IMG/VR virus record: IMGVR_UViG_3300029171_000001
Source of the DNA: a virus
Reading direction: 5' to 3' (one strand)
DNA: 31,572 nucleotides
Every line of letters starts with the position of its first letter. The stretch's first letter is position 1. This document shows positions 1,240 to 10,209 of the stretch, piece after piece. The notes beneath the pieces were generated by a model, which saw only the letters and a list, made by a program, of their open reading frames with translations, was not told where the DNA came from and searched no databases. A program made the position numbers and the translations under genes.

Positions 1240-1313
1240 TGGAGGTCCTGACTGGATTTTAACCAGTGTAGCAGCTTTTGCAGAGCTGAGCCTTTTCTCT
1301 CGGCCACAGGACC
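1240..1313 (-). tRNA. tRNA-Cys(GCA)
   Basis: cloverleaf, loop CT-GCA-AA, encoded CCA; atypical T loop TTAAAAT. Confidence 0.85.
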
Positions 1314-1318
1314 ATTGA

Positions 1319-1395
1319 GACACCGACTGGAATCGAACCAGCATTTAATTAGTTTTGCAGACTAATCCCGCTATCCACGTATTGGGTACGGTGTC
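1319..1395 (-). tRNA. tRNA-Cys(GCA)
   Basis: GACACCG/CGGTGTC acceptor, loop CTGCAAA, TTCGATT T loop. Confidence 0.85.
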
Positions 1396-1399
1396 ATGT

Positions 1400-1457
1400 T
1401 ATACCCGAACAGGTATAGAAACTACATTTTTATAGAAACTATACCCGATCAGGTATA
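1400..1457. repeat. two near-palindromic 18-mers TATACCCGAWCAGGTATA, 40 bp apart
   Basis: copies at 1400-1417 and 1440-1457. Confidence 0.8.
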
Positions 1458-1459
1458 AA

Positions 1460-2365
1460 TTAAGCAGCTTTTTTGTTTTTACTCTTCTTGTACTTACCTG
1501 TTCTTCTCTTCTTTTGTTTATCACAAACGAAGTCTGCAGCACAATTAGCAGCCCAGCTATGAGGTTTATATCTTACCCTAAAACCTTGACCCTCTAAAGC
1601 AGCCTTCGCTCCTTCGTAAACATATGAAGATTTATTCTTCACATCTTTGTTGGTCATAGAAGCAAGGTAGCTTCTAAGTTTAGCTGGTTGTGTAAGTTGA
1701 ACATTCATTACATATTCCAACTCAGATTCGCTGATGTCATTCAACGAAAGAGTGTTTGTAGGATTTGTAACATTTATCAACCTGTCATTCTTTTCATCAA
1801 TGAAGTATTGTCTTCCCTTGATAAGAACCTTACCCTGAAGATCCTCTGGGATTTTAAAACCAGGGTCGATGTTAATATCTACGTCAAGTCCAATCAACTT
1901 ATTTTGGTGAGATGAATATCCTTGCGCAACAAGATCATCCATATTCATTCTCTTAACAACGCCATCAAGTTCTTTTTCAAGGTAGTTACCAAGATAAAGC
2001 ACACGCTCAACTTCACCCCAGATCTTTCCATAGATGCTAGATTCTTTAGCTGCTTTTACAAGTGCCTTATCTCTGTTTTTATCACCAGTTTTTTCTACCC
2101 ATAACCTCTCACTAGGTACAAGTTCTTTGTTGAAGATGTAGTGAACACCGTCACGTCTAAACTCATCGTAAAACGCAACCACACAAGCGTAAAGAGTGTT
2201 TCTACCCCTTTCTGCGGCATCGGCTCCGACAAAAACTTTGGTTCCTGGAAACTTCTTAAGATAGTTCCGAACATATTCACCAAGGTCTGGGATTAATTCA
2301 CCACCAAACTTCTTGAACCCTTTTTCAAGAGGAATTTTTTCTTCCATTTTTTCTACTGTTTTCAT
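1460..2365 (-). CDS. RNase H-like YkuK (DUF458) family protein with insertions
   Basis: motifs VFVGADA, YACVVAFY, WGEVER, LDVDIN, KPHSWAANCAAD. Confidence 0.7.
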   Translation of the reverse strand: MKTVEKMEEKIPLEKGFKKFGGELIPDLGEYVRNYLKKFPGTKVFVGADAAERGRNTLYACVVAFYDEFRRDGVHYIFNKELVPSERLWVEKTGDKNRDKALVKAAKESSIYGKIWGEVERVLYLGNYLEKELDGVVKRMNMDDLVAQGYSSHQNKLIGLDVDINIDPGFKIPEDLQGKVLIKGRQYFIDEKNDRLINVTNPTNTLSLNDISESELEYVMNVQLTQPAKLRSYLASMTNKDVKNKSSYVYEGAKAALEGQGFRVRYKPHSWAANCAADFVCDKQKKRRTGKYKKSKNKKAA

Positions 2366-2400
2366 AAATATATCTCAATTTTTACGAAAAACAAATTTTG

Positions 2401-2491
2401 TACTCCAGCTGGGATTTGAACCCAGATTGTGATCATTAATCCGTGAAGGATTTTAAGTCCTTTGCGTTTCAGCCAGTTTCGCCACTGGAGC
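2401..2491 (-). tRNA. tRNA-Leu(TAA)
   Basis: class II cloverleaf, loop CT-TAA-AA. Confidence 0.9.
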
Positions 2492-2551
2492 ATTTACCTT
2501 GTTCTTCTTGTTTATAATCGCTTCATTTCGTTTTTATTATTTTTATTTTTG

Positions 2552-2636
2552 TAGCCGAGGCGGGACTCGAACCCGCACGAGCGTAATGCTCACAGGATTT
2601 TAAGTCCTGCGTGTCTACCAATTCCACCACTCGGCC
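2552..2636 (-). tRNA. tRNA-Leu(TAA)
   Basis: canonical class II cloverleaf, loop CT-TAA-AA. Confidence 0.95.
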
Positions 2637-2651
2637 ATTTTAAGTATCGTT

Positions 2652-2688
2652 AAAAAAAAAGGACCCAGATTTAAGTCTGAGCCCTTTT
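2652..2688 (-). terminator. attenuator terminator upstream of Leu/Cys tRNAs
   Basis: AAAAGGGCTCAGA-cttaaa-TCTGGGTCC followed by T9. Confidence 0.85.
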
Positions 2689-2714
2689 ATCAAAAAAATA
2701 CTTTTTATAGATAC

Positions 2715-2828
2715 CTAAGAACTCAAACATAACGGTGCGCATAAACACAAAAAGCCATACCCTAGATCTGTTTTCACAGAAATAGATGGGCTCATTGACC
2801 ACGCTGTTATATTTTGATTTCTTTTCAT
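2715..2828 (-). CDS. putative Leu/Cys leader peptide, 37 aa
   Basis: MKRNQNITAWSMSPSISVKTDLGYGFLCLCAPLCLSS; lies between promoter motifs and terminator. Confidence 0.75.
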   Translation of the reverse strand: MKRNQNITAWSMSPSISVKTDLGYGFLCLCAPLCLSS

Positions 2829-2901
2829 CTTTTATAAATAAGCGGAAAAATTTCTTTTTCCAACACACAAATGTAATACTTTATTTTTTAATTTACAACA
2901 A

Positions 2902-4161: not shown

Positions 4162-4216
4162 ACTAATAAATAGTATAAAAAACTGAATATCAACATAAAA
4201 TTAAGGTTGATAGTTG

Positions 4217-4289
4217 TGGCCCCTGTCGGACTTGAACCGACGATCCCTTGATTATGAGTCAAGTGCTTTAACCACTAAGCTAAAGGGCC
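4217..4289 (-). tRNA. tRNA(CAT), probably Ile2 (lysidine)
   Basis: GGCCC acceptor start typical of Ile2; loop CT-CAT-AA. Confidence 0.85.
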
Positions 4290-4309
4290 TACAAAGAACG
4301 TTTAGGAAT

Positions 4310-4561
4310 TTACTCTTTCCATTGAGTGTTTCTATTATACTTCCAGGTTTTATATTCCCTGGCCTTGTACACATACACTGGCCTTCCACTTCCATGTCTT
4401 CCTTTTGAGCGCATGCTTTGAGGAGAACAGTCTATATAAAAAGAACCACTTCTTTTAGCACAAATGTAACAATAATCGTGATAATAATGTTTAGCGATTT
4501 TTGTATATTCTCTGCTTGTTTTTGCTTTATTCAGTTTAGCTCTGTTTCTGTTTATTGACAT
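4310..4561 (-). CDS. small basic hypothetical protein
   Basis: 83 aa with CxxC and terminal WKYNRNTQWK. Confidence 0.65.
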   Translation of the reverse strand: MSINRNRAKLNKAKTSREYTKIAKHYYHDYCYICAKRSGSFYIDCSPQSMRSKGRHGSGRPVYVYKAREYKTWKYNRNTQWKE

Positions 4562-4615
4562 CGGTCATCGTTTTAGAGATTAACCTAACGACATCCAGAT
4601 GCATATTTAAAAGGG

Positions 4616-4939
4616 TTATTCATTTTTTAATTCAATTTTAATATATTCTTCTATTGTGTTAAGAAGATGATTTGTTTGAAATTTTATTGAACCAATGGTG
4701 ATGCCAAACATTTCTAGTTCTCTTTTCGAAAATTTTCCATCTCTGATTGCTTCTGAAATTGCGAAAAACTGAGAAGTACCCGCCTTACTTGAAGACATCT
4801 CCTCTGAATCAAAACGTTTTAACATTTCATAAATAGCATCCCTTAGACTATGGTTGTTCCATTCCTCTTCTTCAAAGTTTAAAACAATATCCTTATTAAC
4901 AGGATATCCAACAACTGGTATGACAACTTTGCTTTTCAT
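4616..4939 (-). CDS. hypothetical protein
   Basis: probable start MKSKVV. Confidence 0.55.
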   Translation of the reverse strand: MKSKVVIPVVGYPVNKDIVLNFEEEEWNNHSLRDAIYEMLKRFDSEEMSSSKAGTSQFFAISEAIRDGKFSKRELEMFGITIGSIKFQTNHLLNTIEEYIKIELKNE

Positions 4940-5081
4940 GCTTTTTAAAATTTTGCCACTATACTCGCAACCACACAATCCATACAATAAAGTTTATCAC
5001 CAGAAATACAGCGAGACACTTTTAATAGATTGCAACTACAGGTATAACAAACAATGGTTTTATGTAACTTAATTTTTAATT

Positions 5082-5276
5082 TCATTTTTCTTTGGTTAGC
5101 GCTTTAAGACACATCATAAAAAAATCAGCCTGTTCTTTGGTTTTAATCACCTTGCTAAGTGAAGTTTCTATTGGTTTTTCTTTTGACCAATCCACTTTTA
5201 TCCCCTTAGTTTTTGCAAGCTCAATTATTTCATTAATCTTTTCTTGAACTTTTTGTTTGCTCAAATCTTTGTTCAT
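5082..5276 (-). CDS. hypothetical protein
   Basis: 64 aa, preceded by TATCTTTG at 5281-5288. Confidence 0.6.
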   Translation of the reverse strand: MNKDLSKQKVQEKINEIIELAKTKGIKVDWSKEKPIETSLSKVIKTKEQADFFMMCLKALTKEK

Positions 5277-5298
5277 GTTTCAAAGATACAAAAAAACC

Positions 5299-5955
5299 TT
5301 AAATCAACAAAGATAAATCTCCATTTACCTCTTCTTTTAATGCTCCTTCGCCAAACTCTAGCTTTAATCGCTCTAGCCAGTCATTTGTCTTGATTTTAAC
5401 AACCCAGACAGATCTGCTACCATCAGTCAAAACACCCTTGCACATAACACCTTCTTTTACCTTTCTTTTGCCCTCCCTCACAGAGAGTATAAATTCTTCA
5501 GTAAGTGGTCCTTGATAAATAACCTTTGGAATGTGAAGATTTCCGAAATCTTTAATAAATTGCTTGGGTTCTACAAAACTATTATTCGTATAATCACCTG
5601 GCGCTATATCAAATAACACAACATCCATTGTGTCTCCAGATTTGTGACGGCCAGCAAATGAATTCTCACCTACATACTCAGCAAATACTGTAAAGTTTTT
5701 TGTGTTTCTATAGTTTTTGCTCTTTGTGAAGATCTCCTCTAGGGCATCTCCATATTTTTTTTCAAACAAAGATACCACACCTTCAAATTGAGCACTACTA
5801 TCATTGATTAGATTGGTTCTGGTGCCAAATTTATACCACCCCTTATTCTTACTCCACTCCGCACGAAAATTTTGTCCATCTAGTTTATCAAATGCAATAA
5901 TATGAGAACCAATGAGACCCTGATTAAAATATTCAATATGTGGATATGCTTTTAT
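5299..5955 (-). CDS. RNA ligase family nucleotidyltransferase, apparent ATA start
   Basis: frame extends 59 codons above the tracked GTG and contains KLDG (motif I); also FAEY, VLFDI, KEGV, VKIK motifs. Confidence 0.75.
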   Translation of the reverse strand: MKAYPHIEYFNQGLIGSHIIAFDKLDGQNFRAEWSKNKGWYKFGTRTNLINDSSAQFEGVVSLFEKKYGDALEEIFTKSKNYRNTKNFTVFAEYVGENSFAGRHKSGDTMDVVLFDIAPGDYTNNSFVEPKQFIKDFGNLHIPKVIYQGPLTEEFILSVREGKRKVKEGVMCKGVLTDGSRSVWVVKIKTNDWLERLKLEFGEGALKEEVNGDLSLLI

Positions 5956-6143
5956 GGTATAAGTTTAATATTTTCTTTTTTAGAATCACTGTAATAACTC
6001 ACAGAATCCCCCTCAATTAATTTTTTAATTTGAGTAGCAGCGTCTTGAAAATCTTTTTTATAATGCTCAAGCTCAATGCCACGTATAAATGTGGAACTCA
6101 CAATAAGATCCACAATTTGTTCTTCTGTAATTTCTGTTTTCAT
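5952..6143 (-). CDS. hypothetical protein
   Basis: 63 aa, preceded by TATATTTG at 6148-6155. Confidence 0.6.
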   Translation of the reverse strand: MKTEITEEQIVDLIVSSTFIRGIELEHYKKDFQDAATQIKKLIEGDSVSYYSDSKKENIKLIP

Positions 6144-6165
6144 AAAACAAATATAACAATTTTTT

Positions 6166-6250
6166 TGGTAGTGGTGAGGGGGTTTGAACCCCTATTTTCA
6201 ACGACCAGTTACGTTTCTCCAAGGTATAAGCTTGGGACGGTACACCACTA
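6166..6250 (-). tRNA. atypical D-armless tRNA-like RNA, anticodon TAT (Ile)
   Basis: acceptor stem with CCA, CCAAG-CTTATAC-CTTGG arm, T arm; no D arm. Confidence 0.7.
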
Positions 6251-6255
6251 TATTG

Positions 6256-6337
6256 TCGGCCTGGAGGAATTTGAACCCACGTTTTCAACACCGCTACAAG
6301 TTATCCATCTTATCAGGATGGTCTGAGTACAGGCCGA
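6256..6337 (-). tRNA. atypical D-armless tRNA-like RNA, anticodon GAT (Ile)
   Basis: TCGGCCTG/CAGGCCGA stem, CCATC-CTGATAA-GATGG arm, T arm; no D arm. Confidence 0.7.
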
Positions 6338-6347
6338 TTGTTTTTTG

Positions 6348-6431
6348 TTGTGACGGCGGGGATCGAACCCACGTTGACATTTCTGTCCCATCTTATCAGG
6401 ATGGTGCCTAAAACCACTCGACCACGTCACA
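6348..6431 (-). tRNA. tRNA-Ile(GAT) with long variable arm
   Basis: cloverleaf; GACA-GAAA-TGTC variable hairpin. Confidence 0.85.
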
Positions 6432-6439
6432 ATATTAAG

Positions 6440-6514
6440 TAGTCCCAGACAGATTTGAACTGTCGACATCATGCGTATCAGGCAAGCGCTCTAACCAGGC
6501 TGAGCTATAGGACT
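6440..6514 (-). tRNA. tRNA-Ile(GAT)
   Basis: canonical cloverleaf, loop CT-GAT-AC. Confidence 0.9.
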
Positions 6515-6591
6515 ATGTGGGGGAAGCTTTGACATAGTGCATATGATATTGTCATCGCTTTTTTATATTCCGCCCCTTCGGGTTTTTATTT

Positions 6592-6816
6592 TCAAATTTG
6601 TGAAAGAACGATATTTCTTAAATTCTCCAAACTGAAATCTTGCACATTTTTTGCAAAATACATTCTGTAGCTTTCGTTTTGATTCAAAGGAAACACTGTT
6701 ATTACAACACTCCCAAATCTGGTGTGTTGTAACCAAACTCTTCTGAATCTATCTGCAAAAGAAGCAGCCAACTCCTTTTGTCTTTCAATCATATTTACAC
6801 TGTTCAAACTTTCCAT
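6592..6816 (-). CDS. hypothetical protein
   Basis: 74 aa ORF between tRNAs. Confidence 0.55.
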   Translation of the reverse strand: MESLNSVNMIERQKELAASFADRFRRVWLQHTRFGSVVITVFPLNQNESYRMYFAKNVQDFSLENLRNIVLSQI

Positions 6817-6835
6817 TTTATTCCTTTATTTTAAG

Positions 6836-6909
6836 TGACCCTGGGGAGGCTCGAACTCCCGACCTTGATGTTAAAAGCATCTTGCTACCACCAGCTGAGC
6901 TACAGAGTC
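6836..6909 (-). tRNA. tRNA-Lys(TTT)
   Basis: cloverleaf, loop CT-TTT-AA. Confidence 0.9.
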
Positions 6910-6919
6910 ATAATTTCTG

Positions 6920-7006
6920 TGCGTCTGGCAGGAGTCGAACCTGCGATGGAGTTTTACCTCACCCGCTTAAGAGGCGGGTCCTGTCGGCCACTAAGGGAAC
7001 AGACGC
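6920..7006 (-). tRNA. tRNA-Lys(CTT), long variable arm
   Basis: loop CT-CTT-AA. Confidence 0.85.
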
Positions 7007-7020
7007 AATTATTTTTTCTG

Positions 7021-7104
7021 TGCGCCTGGAGGGATTCGAACCCCCGATGGATTTTACTCGACTGGTTAAAAGCCAGTTGCTATCAGCCGCTAAGCGACAG
7101 GCGC
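7021..7104 (-). tRNA. tRNA-Lys(TTT), extended variable region
   Basis: loop CT-TTT-AA. Confidence 0.85.
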
Positions 7105-7118
7105 AGTTATGTTTTGTG

Positions 7119-7205
7119 TGCGCCTGACAGGATTCGAACCTGTGATTGAGCTTTCGCTCGTCTGCTTAAAAGGCAGTGCCGTTAGGCCTCTACGGGAACA
7201 GACGC
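7119..7205 (-). tRNA. tRNA-Lys(TTT), long variable arm
   Basis: loop CT-TTT-AA; GAGC-GAAA-GCTC variable hairpin. Confidence 0.85.
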
Positions 7206-7220
7206 AAATTTTATTTATTG

Positions 7221-7293
7221 TCCTCCCGCTTGGAATCGAACCAAGCCTTGTCGGTTAAAAGCCGAGTGCCTACTGCCAGTTTGCTACGAGAGG
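7221..7293 (-). tRNA. tRNA-Lys(TTT)
   Basis: loop CT-TTT-AA. Confidence 0.85.
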
Positions 7294-7383
7294 ATATGAT
7301 GAGATCATAGAGACTCGCAACTTTCTAGCCGTGGCGAATCCCTTATGGTTTCTTCTGTTTATATTTGAACATTTTTTTCATTT

Positions 7384-8025
7384 TTACTTTTTTAATTTCA
7401 ACATTAATCTATCAAATCCTATTGCGAACCCAATACCTTCTTTGTATGTTCCGCCGCCTACAACTTGTTTCTGAGCTCCTAGTGATGGTAAAGAAATTTC
7501 AAATCCTTCATTCACATAATAACTCAACCCTCTCTTTACATTTTCACTGACTTCATATTCATCAGTTACCAACTCCACCATTCTTTTTGCAAGAGAAACT
7601 AATTCCTCTCTTGCTTTTTCCAGGTCTCTTGGATTTATCCACTCCAGACCAAATTGAAAGAACTCTCTATATCTTCCTGTTTGTGGTCTTTCATATCTCC
7701 AACACCTTTCAAAATACCACAGCTTTACATCCTTTTGTTGCTTCCAATATTTGTTTGCAATCAACTGTACTGTTGCAGTACCTTCAGGTCTTAAACAAAT
7801 ATCTCTCTCACCCTTATCTTGAAACACATACATCTGTCCAAGAATTTCTTCCCCTGCTTTTTCCGTGTATATCGACTGTGGTTCGATACTCGGAAGAATT
7901 ATTTCATTGAAATTTTCTGCATGTGCAATCTCGATCATACTGTTAAGGATTATACGTCTATCCTTTGCTTCTTGACCAGAGATGATTCTTACACCCTTGC
8001 TTTGTTTTTCAATTTCTAATTCCAT
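7384..8025 (-). CDS. minimal histidyl-tRNA synthetase-like protein (class II catalytic core only)
   Basis: LRPEGT, RYERPQTGRYREFFQ, RGLSYY, GGGTY, GFAIGFDRL; 213 aa, no anticodon-binding domain. Confidence 0.85.
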   Translation of the reverse strand: MELEIEKQSKGVRIISGQEAKDRRIILNSMIEIAHAENFNEIILPSIEPQSIYTEKAGEEILGQMYVFQDKGERDICLRPEGTATVQLIANKYWKQQKDVKLWYFERCWRYERPQTGRYREFFQFGLEWINPRDLEKAREELVSLAKRMVELVTDEYEVSENVKRGLSYYVNEGFEISLPSLGAQKQVVGGGTYKEGIGFAIGFDRLMLKLKK

Positions 8026-8188
8026 ACTTTGAATCCTTTAGTGGATCTACAAATTTAAATTTACCTTTTAATTCCTCTGAAAGATTAGATAACTTCCCAC
8101 CTGACCTAAGATGGACATGCAATTCTTCTTTCGCTTTTTGTCTTTCCAAAATCATTTTTATGATTTCAGGTTTTTTTATTTCTTTCAT
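8009..8188 (-). CDS. hypothetical protein
   Basis: probable start MKEIKK; the tracked N-terminus overlaps tRNA-Thr. Confidence 0.55.
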   Translation of the reverse strand: MKEIKKPEIIKMILERQKAKEELHVHLRSGGKLSNLSEELKGKFKFVDPLKDSKYGIRN

Positions 8189-8193
8189 TTCAG

Positions 8194-8266
8194 AGCCACA
8201 GGTCGGATTTGAACCGACAACCTCAGGTTTACAAAACCCGTGCACCGCCAATTGTGCTACTGTGGC
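8194..8266 (-). tRNA. tRNA-Thr(TGT)
   Basis: cloverleaf, loop TT-TGT-AA. Confidence 0.9.
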
Positions 8267-8339
8267 ATTTTAATTTTTCTACGCAACTTGCTGGTTCGGC
8301 CAAGTCTATAAAAAATTATAAAACAGTCTCATAACTGAG

Positions 8340-8421
8340 AGCCTGAGAGGAGATTCGAACTCCTGGTGTTTGTATTCTCGCTTACAAGGCGAGCGCAATC
8401 GGCCACTAATGCAACACAGGC
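8340..8421 (-). tRNA. tRNA-Thr(TGT), extended variable region
   Basis: loop CT-TGT-AA; one acceptor mismatch. Confidence 0.8.
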
Positions 8422-8444
8422 AATATTTTATTCTAAAGAACTTG

Positions 8445-8516
<72 letters not shown>

Positions 8517-8531
8517 TTGTTGTGTTTATTG

Positions 8532-8603
8532 AGCATCTTTCCAGACTTGAACTGGTTTCTCATGCTTACGAAGCAAGTGCATCACCATCAATGCTTAAGA
8601 TGC
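8532..8603 (-). tRNA. tRNA-Thr(CGT)
   Basis: loop TT-CGT-AA. Confidence 0.85.
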
Positions 8604-8608
8604 TTTTG

Positions 8609-8700
8609 GGTGCATGACGGGATTTGAACCCGTGTTGTTTGCTTTCGCTCTTCCTGCTTCACAGGCAGGTTCCTTCGACCATACTCGGACCACACGCACC
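8609..8700 (-). tRNA. tRNA-His(GTG), long variable region
   Basis: G-1:C73 pair, loop CT-GTG-AA. Confidence 0.85.
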
Positions 8701-8712
8701 ATATTAAAAATT

Positions 8713-8789
8713 GGGCAACAAAGAGGAGTCGAACCTCAAGCAACTAGTATACGGTACCACTAAGGTACCTGCGCTCCACAGCTGCTGCC
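8713..8789 (-). ncRNA. tRNA-like RNA with His-type 8 bp acceptor and loop CTTAGTG
   Basis: GGCAGCAG/TTGTTGCC stem, GGTAC/GTACC arm, GAGG-TTCGACT-CCTC T arm; reduced D region. Confidence 0.55.
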
Positions 8790-8795
8790 ATAACG

Positions 8796-8871
8796 GGTAA
8801 CATATCGGGTTCGAACCGATGACCTCTTGAATCACAATCAAGCGCTCTAAACCAACTGAGCTAATGCTACC
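8796..8871 (-). tRNA. tRNA-His(GTG)
   Basis: G-1:C73 pair, loop TT-GTG-AT. Confidence 0.9.
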
Positions 8872-8875
8872 ATGT

Positions 8876-8957
8876 ATTGAGGAAATTGTGTTAGTGAATT
8901 TTTCATTAACAGTGAATTGCCTTACGGCGAGAAGTAACTAAACCACATGGCCTCAAT
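8876..8957 (-). ncRNA. small structured RNA, paralog of 8965-9109 without the tRNA domain
   Basis: ATTGAGG/CCTCAAT closing stem; shared GGCCATGTG...GYTACTTCT and CAATTTC motifs. Confidence 0.6.
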
Positions 8958-8964
8958 AATAATT

Positions 8965-9109
8965 TTGTTGACAGAAATTGCACCAGCAATACGCTGCTCT
9001 ACCACTGAGCTACATTCCCAATTTTATTTCTTGTGGGAATGCCAGGAATCGGACCTGGGACAGGCGGCTTATAATGCATAGAAGTAGCATGACACATGGC
9101 CGTCAACAA
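8965..9109 (-). ncRNA. Y RNA (YrlA)-like RNA with circularly permuted tRNA domain
   Basis: order T arm, closed acceptor hairpin, D arm, all inside a terminal TTGTTGAC/GTCAACAA stem. Confidence 0.65.
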
Positions 9110-9214
9110 TTGGCATTGTGCGGGGATTCTCACCCCTACAGCCTTAAGCATTGTCTAGAATACTTTTGCCACAATATTTTTAATATTTCAAATTACAAAG
9201 AACGTTTTCTTTTT

Positions 9215-9291
9215 GCCTTCTTAGGTGGATTCGAACCACTTTTTCCACTTGCTCGTGTGTATAGCTATAACACACACCGCTTCTAAGAAGA
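9215..9291 (-). ncRNA. D-armless tRNA-like RNA
   Basis: TCTTCTTA/TAAGAAGG stem, GTGTGT/ACACAC hairpin, GTGG-TTCGAAT-CCAC T arm. Confidence 0.55.
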
Positions 9292-9295
9292 TTTG

Positions 9296-9372
9296 CTGAC
9301 CAGGTAGGACTCGAACCCACAACCCTCCCGCTAACAACGGGCCGCTCTAAACCAATTAGTAGCTACTGGTCA
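9296..9372 (-). tRNA. tRNA-Asn(GTT)
   Basis: loop TT-GTT-AG, G73. Confidence 0.85.
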
Positions 9373-9378
9373 TTTTTG

Positions 9379-9465
9379 CTGTCCTGATGGGATTCGAACC
9401 CACGACCCTTCGCTTAACAGGCGAGCGCTCTAAGACTTTCGTCAAACCGCTGGAGCTACAGAACA
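9379..9465 (-). tRNA. tRNA-Asn(GTT) with hairpin inserted in the D loop
   Basis: loop CT-GTT-AA; GAC-GAAA-GTC inside the D loop. Confidence 0.85.
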
Positions 9466-9472
9466 GATATTG

Positions 9473-9544
9473 CTCTTCAGGCGGGGATTGAACCTGCGAC
9501 CCTTCGCTTAACAGGCGAGCGCTCTACCACTGAGCTACTGAAGA
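9473..9544 (-). tRNA. tRNA-Asn(GTT)
   Basis: canonical cloverleaf. Confidence 0.92.
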
Positions 9545-9621
9545 ATATACATTGAAAGACTTTCACTTTCCCTTGTGGGGTTGAGGACCCATTTCCTCAA
9601 CCCAACATACTTTTTCATTAA

Positions 9622-9879
9622 TCAAAGAACATCACCAAGTTCGTTTCGCAAATCTTTTTTGAGTTGTTGTCTTACTCCTTTTTTTAGTGAGCGATTTGCG
9701 TTTCTCACCTCTTCTTTTTTACTTTTACTCTTCAAGTTACTTGGCACATCTTGAGAGTGATCTATTGTCCATTTTCTTTCCTGGTTTTTCGAGAAGGGTG
9801 TCATTTTTTTATGCTTACCTTCTTTTTTTACGATTCCACTTTTAGAACCTGGAACAATTTTATTTTTTTTATTGCTCAT
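9622..9879 (-). CDS. small basic hypothetical protein
   Basis: 85 aa Lys-rich ORF, first gene after the attenuator. Confidence 0.65.
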   Translation of the reverse strand: MSNKKNKIVPGSKSGIVKKEGKHKKMTPFSKNQERKWTIDHSQDVPSNLKSKSKKEEVRNANRSLKKGVRQQLKKDLRNELGDVL

Positions 9880-9906: not shown

Positions 9907-9948
9907 AGAAAACAAGAAGGCCCGTATCTTGTGTGGATACGGGCCTTC
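9907..9948 (-). terminator. attenuator terminator of the large tRNA operon
   Basis: perfect 13 bp stem GAAGGCCCGTATC/GATACGGGCCTTC followed by TTGTTTTCT. Confidence 0.9.
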
Positions 9949-9984
9949 GGAATTTCTTTTGGCTCAGTTTTTAAATTATGCGCC

Positions 9985-10086
9985 TCATGATCTGTTTCCT
10001 ACATACCCGTATACCAACGTTTTATTAATATGCTTTTTGCATATAATCGTTGTGTTATTGGTTGTATGTAAGATATTCATTAGCAT
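9985..10086 (-). CDS. putative Asn/His/Thr/Lys/Ile leader peptide, 33 aa
   Basis: MLMNILHTTNNTTIICKKHINKTLVYGYVGNRS; 18 of codons 4-23 are N/H/T/K/I. Confidence 0.85.
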   Translation of the reverse strand: MLMNILHTTNNTTIICKKHINKTLVYGYVGNRS

Positions 10087-10149
10087 GATTTCTTATTTTT
10101 TACTTTTGTTGTTTCTTTTAAATAGTTGAAAAAATTGTTTTTCGATAAT

Positions 10150-10178
10150 TTATACGTACAAAGATAGAATAAGTTTCA
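10150..10178 (-). promoter_or_regulatory. ECF-type promoter TGAAAC-N16-CGTATAA with nested TATCTTTG
   Basis: repeated motif directly upstream of the leader ORF. Confidence 0.7.
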
Positions 10179-10209
10179 ATTAAAACCAAACATTTTTTCA
10201 AACTTTATT

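Follow-up and report, generated by a model that had tools for sequence, protein, structure and literature searches.

A stretch of 31,572 nucleotides of the IMG/VR record IMGVR_UViG_3300029171_000001, which belongs to a large uncultured phage, carries on its minus strand a promoter, a short leader open reading frame (ORF), an intrinsic terminator and, further on, an array of tRNA genes whose isotypes recur as codons in the leader. Judged from its sequence and from that of its relatives, this element is probably a ribosome-mediated (leader-peptide) transcription attenuator gating the phage tRNA operon. In what follows, the window designates the whole stretch, and the type-A unit designates the promoter, the leader, the terminator and the first ORF behind it (ORF85), all window coordinates of which are read on the minus strand. 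The unit had been noticed in an original prediction made from the letters of the window, and the promoter, the 33-codon ORF at 10086-9985 and the 13-bp terminator that it described are confirmed on the minus strand. The order leader ORF, terminator and tRNA array was also correct, with the amendment that an 85-codon ORF (9879-9622) lying before the first tRNA had been missed. The features of this region are:

10159..10190, minus: promoter of Bacteroidota type, from sequence and motif scan, with a -33 element TTTG (10190-10187), a 20-nt spacer and a -7 element TATCTTTG (10166-10159)
10087..10158, minus: A-rich 5' untranslated leader, with the conserved AAGAAATC at its 3' end, right before the ATG
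9985..10086, minus: leader ORF, 33 codons plus TGA (MLMNILHTTNNTTIICKKHINKTLVYGYVGNRS), with ATG at 10086 and TGA at 9987-9985
10018..10077, minus: regulatory run of codons (4-23), with Asn, His, Thr, Lys or Ile at 18 of its 20 positions
10060..10073, minus: segment 1, 5' strand of the leader hairpin (TCTTACATAC..CC), from the fold
10028..10044, minus: apical leader hairpin ATATGC-AAAAA-GCATAT, with compensatory changes among homologues
9997..10012, minus: segment 2, with two possible partners, the terminator 5' arm for ATACGGGT (10012-10005) and segment 1 for GGGTATGTAGGA (10008-9997)
9961..9984, minus: small conserved GGC...GCC helix (helix 6) and AGCCAAAAG motif, between the leader stop codon and the terminator
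9907..9948, minus: intrinsic terminator, segments 3 and 4, with a 13-bp stem (9948-9936/9928-9916), a 7-nt loop and a T-tract (9915-9907)
9622..9879, minus: ORF85, 85 codons, first gene past the terminator, starting 36 nt after the terminator stem
4216..9544, minus: tRNA array under putative control, with interspersed ORFs and 15 tRNA genes (two Asn, one His, four Thr, five Lys, two Ile and a CAT tRNA)

Leader codons and the tRNA arrays behind them

Codons 4-23 of the leader read as originally listed, and the isotypes served by 18 of these 20 codons (Asn, His, Thr, Lys and Ile) are those of the downstream array. The match had been proposed to extend to isoacceptors, and this stands for the greater part: ARAGORN recovers two Asn tRNAs, His, Thr CGT/GGT/TGT/TGT, Lys TTT (four copies) and CTT, Ile GAT (two copies) and the CAT tRNA. 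An Ile(TAT) tRNA, also part of that proposal, was not found by ARAGORN in the window; the relatives carry one.

Regarding these relatives, a DNA similarity search against 50,697 deposited phage genomes gave no match to the window, and the upstream 212-aa protein, used as bait in viral contigs, retrieved none. With the ORF85 protein as bait, three IMG/VR contigs of 96-154 kb were obtained, to which a protein search and context look-ups added further ones, bringing the total to 14 distinct type-A units; figures on structure and reading frame that are based on the alignment use 13 sequences. A scan of viral contigs with the leader motif returned nothing beyond the three known relatives and three chance matches, and the same type of scan on metagenome contigs, with an AT-rich pattern, returned at least 119 stretches, with no homologue among the matches listed. 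The order of the tRNA array is identical in the type-A relatives and its content is invariant, so that covariation between leader codons and array cannot be assessed within type A.

Such covariation, which had been put forward as a check in related phages, is clear across paralogous arrays. Indeed, the relatives have 37-40 or more tRNA genes each, distributed in several arrays, and when these other arrays were fetched and scanned for terminators, every array examined proved to be preceded by its own cassette, in which a promoter carrying TTTGTACGTATAA or a motif close to it is followed by an A-rich leader that finishes with ...ATTTATAACAA-ATG-AAA, then by a mini-ORF and a strong terminator. 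The leaders have this layout in common and differ in the sequence of their hairpins. The leader peptide MKNLFNTQQQQQQQTFFEGCLVI, with seven Gln codons, stands ahead of four Gln TTG tRNAs and one Gln CTG; the peptides ...NNRSWSWRRSSSSSR... and ...YRWSWRSSSSSSKR... are found ahead of three Ser tRNAs, Arg TCT/CCT and two Trp tRNAs; ...PAAPMMGGAGYAPAYDYSYGSGY... and ...YPVYTVAAPAMGDAGMGYAPDY... ahead of Pro, Asp, Tyr, Ala, Gly and Met tRNAs, with Pro, Ala, Gly, Asp and Tyr codons in the leader; and ...LRLRSFVLVQVLFVLF... ahead of three Phe and three Val tRNAs, Arg ACG and Leu CAA/TAG/AAG. The window itself contains a second cassette, whose leader peptide ends in FLCLCAPLCLSS and whose terminator lies 20 nt before two Leu(TAA) and two Cys tRNAs:

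2657..2898, minus: second cassette, with promoter (2898-2868), leader ORF (2828-2715) and terminator (2688-2657)
1240..2636, minus: tRNA array of the second cassette, two Leu(TAA) and two Cys(GCA)

Homologues of this Leu/Cys leader occur in G003, L012, L013 and L017, and five homologues have about three Leu-Cys codon pairs each.

The match was scored as the number of wobble-decodable codons in a 10-codon window, with one representative for each of six leader types. Each leader has a 10-codon window in which 7-10 codons are read by its own array, while the figure for non-cognate arrays is never above 6 and usually 0-5. Assigning the leaders to their true arrays gives a score of 50, compared with a permutation mean of 21, and is the unique best of 720. 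The correspondence reaches the codon family. Leaders of the Ser/Arg/Trp type use only AGR as Arg codons (7/7) and their arrays hold Arg TCT/CCT, whereas those of the Phe/Val/Leu/Arg type use only CGY (4/4); Arg ACG is present in their array in G003, which is complete, the copy in G001 being cut by the contig end. Moreover, CTN Leu codons are concentrated in leaders whose arrays hold Leu TAG/AAG. This covariation, found between paralogues and not between orthologues, is the decisive evidence.

In the type-A leader, the TTA and TGC codons had been taken as matches to the Leu and Cys tRNAs further downstream, which was probably an over-reading: both sit in conserved stem strands (CTTACATAC and ATATGC), and the Leu/Cys array appears to be separately attenuated. 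The idea that these codons deliberately sample Leu and Cys tRNAs was rejected as unnecessary in view of their position in stem strands and of the leader that those tRNAs have of their own.

Coding constraint and codon bias of the leader

The leader ORF is open in 14/14 distinct homologues, with 32-39 codons, an invariant ATG and a mean column divergence of 25%, and its start context is near-invariant in the 13 aligned homologues. The arrangement of promoter and untranslated leader is likewise kept ahead of all 14 type-A leaders and of the paralogous ones. Alignment gaps within the ORF are all multiples of three, with the exception of L020, where -1 and +1 changes 21 nt apart restore the frame; the spacer past the leader stop codon, by contrast, shows gaps of 1 and 2 nt. 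Such a pattern is typical of a reading frame under selection and not of an element acting as RNA alone. In the 13 homologues, the leader frame is without stops and the other two frames contain up to eight stops each.

The original prediction had warned that A-rich codons are favoured in AT-rich DNA. Composition does explain part of the bias and does not explain the whole of it. When the regulatory part is shuffled with its dinucleotides preserved, only 13% of the shuffles keep the frame open, and these contain about 12/21 in-set codons (~58%) versus 17/21 observed (P = 0.004, and P <= 0.002 for four relatives), the observed share of 81-90% lying above this open-frame null. The bias is also specific to the frame, with 82% in-set codons in the leader frame over the 13 homologues versus 39% and 30% in the other two. 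Real genes behave differently: the 31 long ORFs of the window have 30.8% in-set codons, with at most 15 in any of their 7,078 21-codon windows. The enrichment over a composition-matched null, on which the prediction had been made to depend, hence survives dinucleotide shuffles, frame controls and comparison with real genes.

Alternative structures of the leader RNA

The alternative pairings outlined by the original prediction are all found. Folded alone, the ORF region is a long hairpin (z = -5.1) that contains the 1:2 pairing, the 3:4 pairing is the terminator itself, and the 2:3 pairing is available between ATACGGGT (10012-10005) and GCCCGTAT (9944-9937). Since segment 1 engages the GGGU of segment 2 within the leader hairpin, the 1:2 and 2:3 pairings are mutually exclusive. 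The terminator reads GAAGGCCCGTATC / CACACAA / GATACGGGCCTTC at 9948-9916, followed by TTGTTTTCT, and its hairpin is GC-rich.

In the alignment of 13 sequences, the leader hairpin and the terminator, taken together as the structure of the terminated state, show 97.5% pairing and include 10 compensatory pairs; none of 500 shuffles is as good, and slid controls reach 28-44% paired. Compensatory changes affect five pairs of the terminator and three or four pairs of the apical hairpin, leader helices 2-4 covary, and in the helix ACATAC/GTATGT of segment 1 a C-G pair is replaced by A-U in two homologues. The antiterminator helix, with segment 2 at columns 100-108, is 80% paired compared with 12-58% in slid controls, and its covariation, although modest, scores 0.14 versus 0.079, a value of 0.14 being reached by 2/500 shuffles. 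In L002, segment 2 and the two terminator arms all carry one and the same change, CGGG to CAGG, and in L015 and L020 the antiterminator has 8-9 perfect pairs. The duplex of segment 2 with the terminator 5' arm amounts to -16.4 kcal/mol in the window, versus -8.8 +/- 2.7 in shuffles.

Cognate alternative pairing extends to the paralogous cassettes. Whatever the type, the ORF closes with codons that include a copy of the terminator 3' arm, as in GGTCGGG with CCCGACC, AGCGGGTT with AACCCGCT, AGCCAGG with CCTGGCT and TTTGAGTTCTT with AAGGGCTCAGA. Duplexes between the ORF tail and its own 5' arm lie at -12 to -20 kcal/mol versus -7 to -9 in shuffles (P <= 0.04 in 11/13 units), and the cognate assignment of tails to arms is the best of 720 (-85.2, mean -60.6); with a second set of representatives, three of the 720 assignments, the true one among them, are as good or better.

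Folding with a ribosome footprint, as had been recommended, gave a result in two parts. With a 28-nt footprint imposed on the fold, the terminator 5' arm is largely paired for A-site positions within the codon run, and with the footprint over the ORF tail its pairing drops in 10/13 units, with little or no drop in three. In these folding models, the pattern is the geometry of classical attenuation. The less favourable part, an antiterminator that also forms without a ribosome, is taken up below.

Two further structural features were noticed in type A. One is a near-invariant pairing of TCATG, at the start codon, with CATGA, in the stop-codon region, which, speculatively, might hold the leader to one co-transcriptional round of translation. 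The GGC...GCC mini-helix and the AGCCAAAAG motif (9961-9984) are conserved in all type-A homologues.

Predicted read-through into the tRNA operon

The gaps behind the terminators are short, 36 nt from the type-A terminator stem to ORF85 and 20 nt from the second terminator to tRNA-Leu, and a consensus promoter scan of the minus strand detected no second promoter-like motif between 10190 and ~5310. For these reasons, and with the consensus scan as the sole basis for promoter calls, expression of ORF85 and of the tRNAs would require passage through the terminator. The promoter class is generic and not specific to leaders, because two more promoters of the same sequence type (G001, ~67.3 kb; G002, ~43.2 kb) precede ordinary protein genes.

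Proposed mechanism and alternative explanations

In the mechanism that we propose, transcription would start at the conserved promoter and a ribosome would translate the 33-codon leader, the first two thirds of which are made up almost wholly of Asn, His, Thr, Lys and Ile codons. Upon fast decoding, the ribosome would have reached the ORF tail (segment 2) while the polymerase makes the terminator, the hairpin would form and the transcript would end at about position 9907. If a cognate aminoacyl-tRNA were scarce, the ribosome would stall in the run, masking segment 1 and leaving segment 2 free, so that ATACGGGT could pair with the terminator 5' arm and allow read-through into ORF85 and the Asn, His, Thr, Lys and Ile tRNAs. 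Accumulating phage tRNAs would then end the stalling and turn the operon off, a negative feedback on decoding capacity. What the sequences show is the anatomy and its conservation, the coding constraint, the covariation, the correspondence of codons and anticodons and the cognate alternative pairing; we infer that the leader is translated, that the switch works in this direction and that tRNA supply is the quantity sensed. A trp/his/thr-type attenuator ahead of a tRNA array, as originally proposed, is supported by the comparative evidence, and each tRNA array of the phage family would have its own cassette tuned to its own isoacceptors. On balance, it is probable that the family runs a distributed, isoacceptor-resolved monitor of the decoding capacity of the host cell, with one attenuator per array; each block of tRNAs would be produced solely during slow decoding of its own codons and then switched off by the tRNAs it encodes. 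The slow decoding could stem from a host tRNA pool unfit for the AT-rich codon usage of the phage or, instead, from host anticodon nucleases or tRNA depletion acting as a defence.

Several observations weigh against this interpretation. The type-A leader also contains Leu, Met, Cys, Phe, Val and Ser codons that have no match in its array. In type A, the antiterminator is a short helix, of 8 bp in the window and no more than 5-6 bp in five of 13 homologues, and is weak in one homologue; the tail-arm duplex of the Gln leader (-8.5) is not better than shuffles. The equilibrium fold of the nascent RNA makes the antiterminator without a ribosome in most units, which leaves folding order, or a ribosome covering segment 2, to account for the OFF state. 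The covariation between leaders and arrays is drawn from six paralogous types, which reappear through common descent in a small number of related genomes, and P has a floor of 1/720. Finally, the host is presumed to belong to the Bacteroidota from the promoter motif alone, and transcription-translation coupling there is assumed.

An attenuator of the same design might respond to amino-acid starvation or to the general translational state, such as ribosome availability after host shut-off, the choice of codons being secondary. Amino-acid shortage would also stall ribosomes, since leader-peptide attenuators respond to charged tRNA, and the default state without a ribosome is not settled by folding. 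We nevertheless consider this unlikely, because the match holds at the isoacceptor level (AGR leaders go with Arg TCT/CCT and CGY leaders with Arg ACG), there is a separate leader for each array, and extra tRNA would not relieve a starvation for amino acids. The long, conserved and covarying hairpin, together with the conserved small basic protein encoded just downstream, could also be explained by a ribosome-independent RNA switch in which the leader RNA binds a tRNA, in the manner of a T-box, or a phage protein such as the ORF85 product, the ORF being incidental. It is very unlikely that an element of this kind would account for the leader: acting as RNA only, it would not keep a frame open from ATG to stop in 14/14 units with indels that are multiples of three or compensated and a frame-specific codon bias, no T-box or other Rfam family is reached at threshold, and the paralogous leaders resemble each other in layout and not in hairpin sequence.

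Lastly, the leader could be a stand-alone small gene, for a micropeptide or a small RNA, with its own terminator, the tRNAs being expressed from elsewhere and the likeness of codons arising from A-richness, which favours Asn, Lys, Ile and Thr and already brings open-frame shuffles to more than half in-set codons. We give this hardly any credence: the observed share exceeds that null in a frame-specific manner, these AT-rich genomes also have leaders rich in G/C-containing codons (Pro/Ala/Gly, Ser/Arg/Trp, Gln), each ahead of the array that it matches, and the space from the terminator to the downstream genes is too small for a promoter.

Genes of the operon and neighbouring observations

The ORF85 product is a small, basic, lysine-rich protein of 85 aa, highly conserved, in which the motif NANRSLKKG is invariant. 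It falls into no Pfam or PHROG family, and its Atlas neighbours are viral hypothetical proteins only; the AlphaFold model, of low confidence (pLDDT 69), predicts a disordered N-terminus and one long helix. More distant homologues exist in other phages without nearby tRNAs (L004, L005). In L017, an HNH homing-endonuclease gene (L017:298-717) is inserted between the type-A terminator and ORF85, leaving leader and terminator intact upstream; a duplicated remnant of the terminator 3' arm follows the HNH gene, and the Asn and His tRNAs are missing from this array. Between ORF85 and the first tRNA lies a conserved GC-rich hairpin, GGGTTGAGG...CCTCAACCC (9570-9611, minus; L001:4258-4300), which has no T-tract.

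Within the array, a 213-aa ORF (7384-8025, minus) matches the histidyl-tRNA synthetase core/class II synthetases (Pfam PF13393, E = 9e-21), the match spanning only positions 6-141 of the 308 of the profile. Many tRNAs are 78-92 nt long (6919-7006, 7020-7104, 7118-7205, 8339-8421, 6347-6431, 9295-9372 and others, and likewise in L001-L024), and most isotypes have one normal copy of 73-76 nt plus one long copy. In drawings, three long Lys copies (85-88 nt) have a long variable arm with a stem of 3-5 bp, a feature normally confined in bacteria to Leu, Ser and Tyr tRNAs; by length, over-long copies also exist for Asn, Thr, Ile, Met and Cys. The loci L031 and L033 (contigs G001 and G002) have a tRNA with anticodon CUA, an amber suppressor, which hints that TAG is perhaps recoded in part of the related genomes. 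Moreover, an RNA ligase gene (Pfam PF09414) lies inside or beside the tRNA arrays of L012, L013, L015, L017, L020 and L023, suggesting tRNA repair next to tRNA supply.

Significance and relation to known systems

Large phage tRNA sets have been proposed to compensate for codon usage, to replace host tRNAs that are degraded and to evade anticodon nucleases, and their purpose is an open question. A codon-matched attenuator for each array would imply that the phage gauges the speed of decoding separately for each codon family and supplies tRNAs on demand, with feedback. If true, this would be the first attenuation system controlling tRNA genes and a built-in counter to tRNA-targeting immunity, carrying classical attenuation beyond metabolism into a virus's translation apparatus. 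It would also turn the purpose of phage tRNAs into a testable question, namely which stresses open which cassette, and the cassettes would be compact natural sensors of specific tRNA availability. Full-text literature searching and an opinion paper on phage tRNAs yielded no account of leader-peptide control of tRNA genes, and a literature search on leader peptides in Bacteroidetes added nothing useful.

Phages in culture such as T4 and T5 have tRNA gene clusters with interspersed small ORFs and homing endonucleases, as does the family described here; we know of no codon-matched leader/terminator cassette in the T4 or T5 clusters. With T-box riboswitches, the type-A unit would share the control of translation-apparatus genes by a terminator and an antiterminator according to the state of a specific tRNA. 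In T-boxes, however, a specifier loop reads the tRNA and neither ribosome nor ORF is needed, whereas here a conserved reading frame would do the reading. An Rfam scan (E <= 10) gave no T-box match (RF00230), and Thr_leader (RF00506) was reached only below threshold, at 20.2-20.3 bits versus a gathering threshold of 55 and over the terminator only; the leader has no sequence membership in any Rfam leader family.

The closest parallels are with leader-peptide attenuators. The pheM attenuator of E. coli pheST also acts on the translation apparatus, with feedback on the supply of charged tRNA, but it is cellular and controls a synthetase for a single amino acid, while the phage cassettes would control tRNA genes. 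The classical attenuators, thrL (Thr/Ile), the ilvGMEDA leader (Ile/Leu/Val), trpL, hisL and pheL, belong to enterobacterial amino-acid operons and, in trp, his and thr attenuation, respond to charged tRNA. The promoter-adjacent ORF, the cognate codons, the terminator, the antiterminator and the 1:2 anti-antiterminator expected of this class are all present in the type-A unit. The genes behind it are ORF85 and 15 tRNA genes, whereas to our knowledge all classical leader-peptide attenuators control genes of amino-acid biosynthesis, transport or aminoacyl-tRNA synthetases. Like the thr and ilv leaders, the phage unit has a promoter-proximal mini-ORF, a codon run for several amino acids, mutually exclusive 1:2, 2:3 and 3:4 pairings, an intrinsic terminator and a predicted read-through upon stalling. 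Unlike them, it is viral, it would govern tRNA genes and a small ORF instead of biosynthetic enzymes, its single leader samples five isotypes, and it is part of a paralogous set in which there is one leader per array, matched to the codon family of that array.

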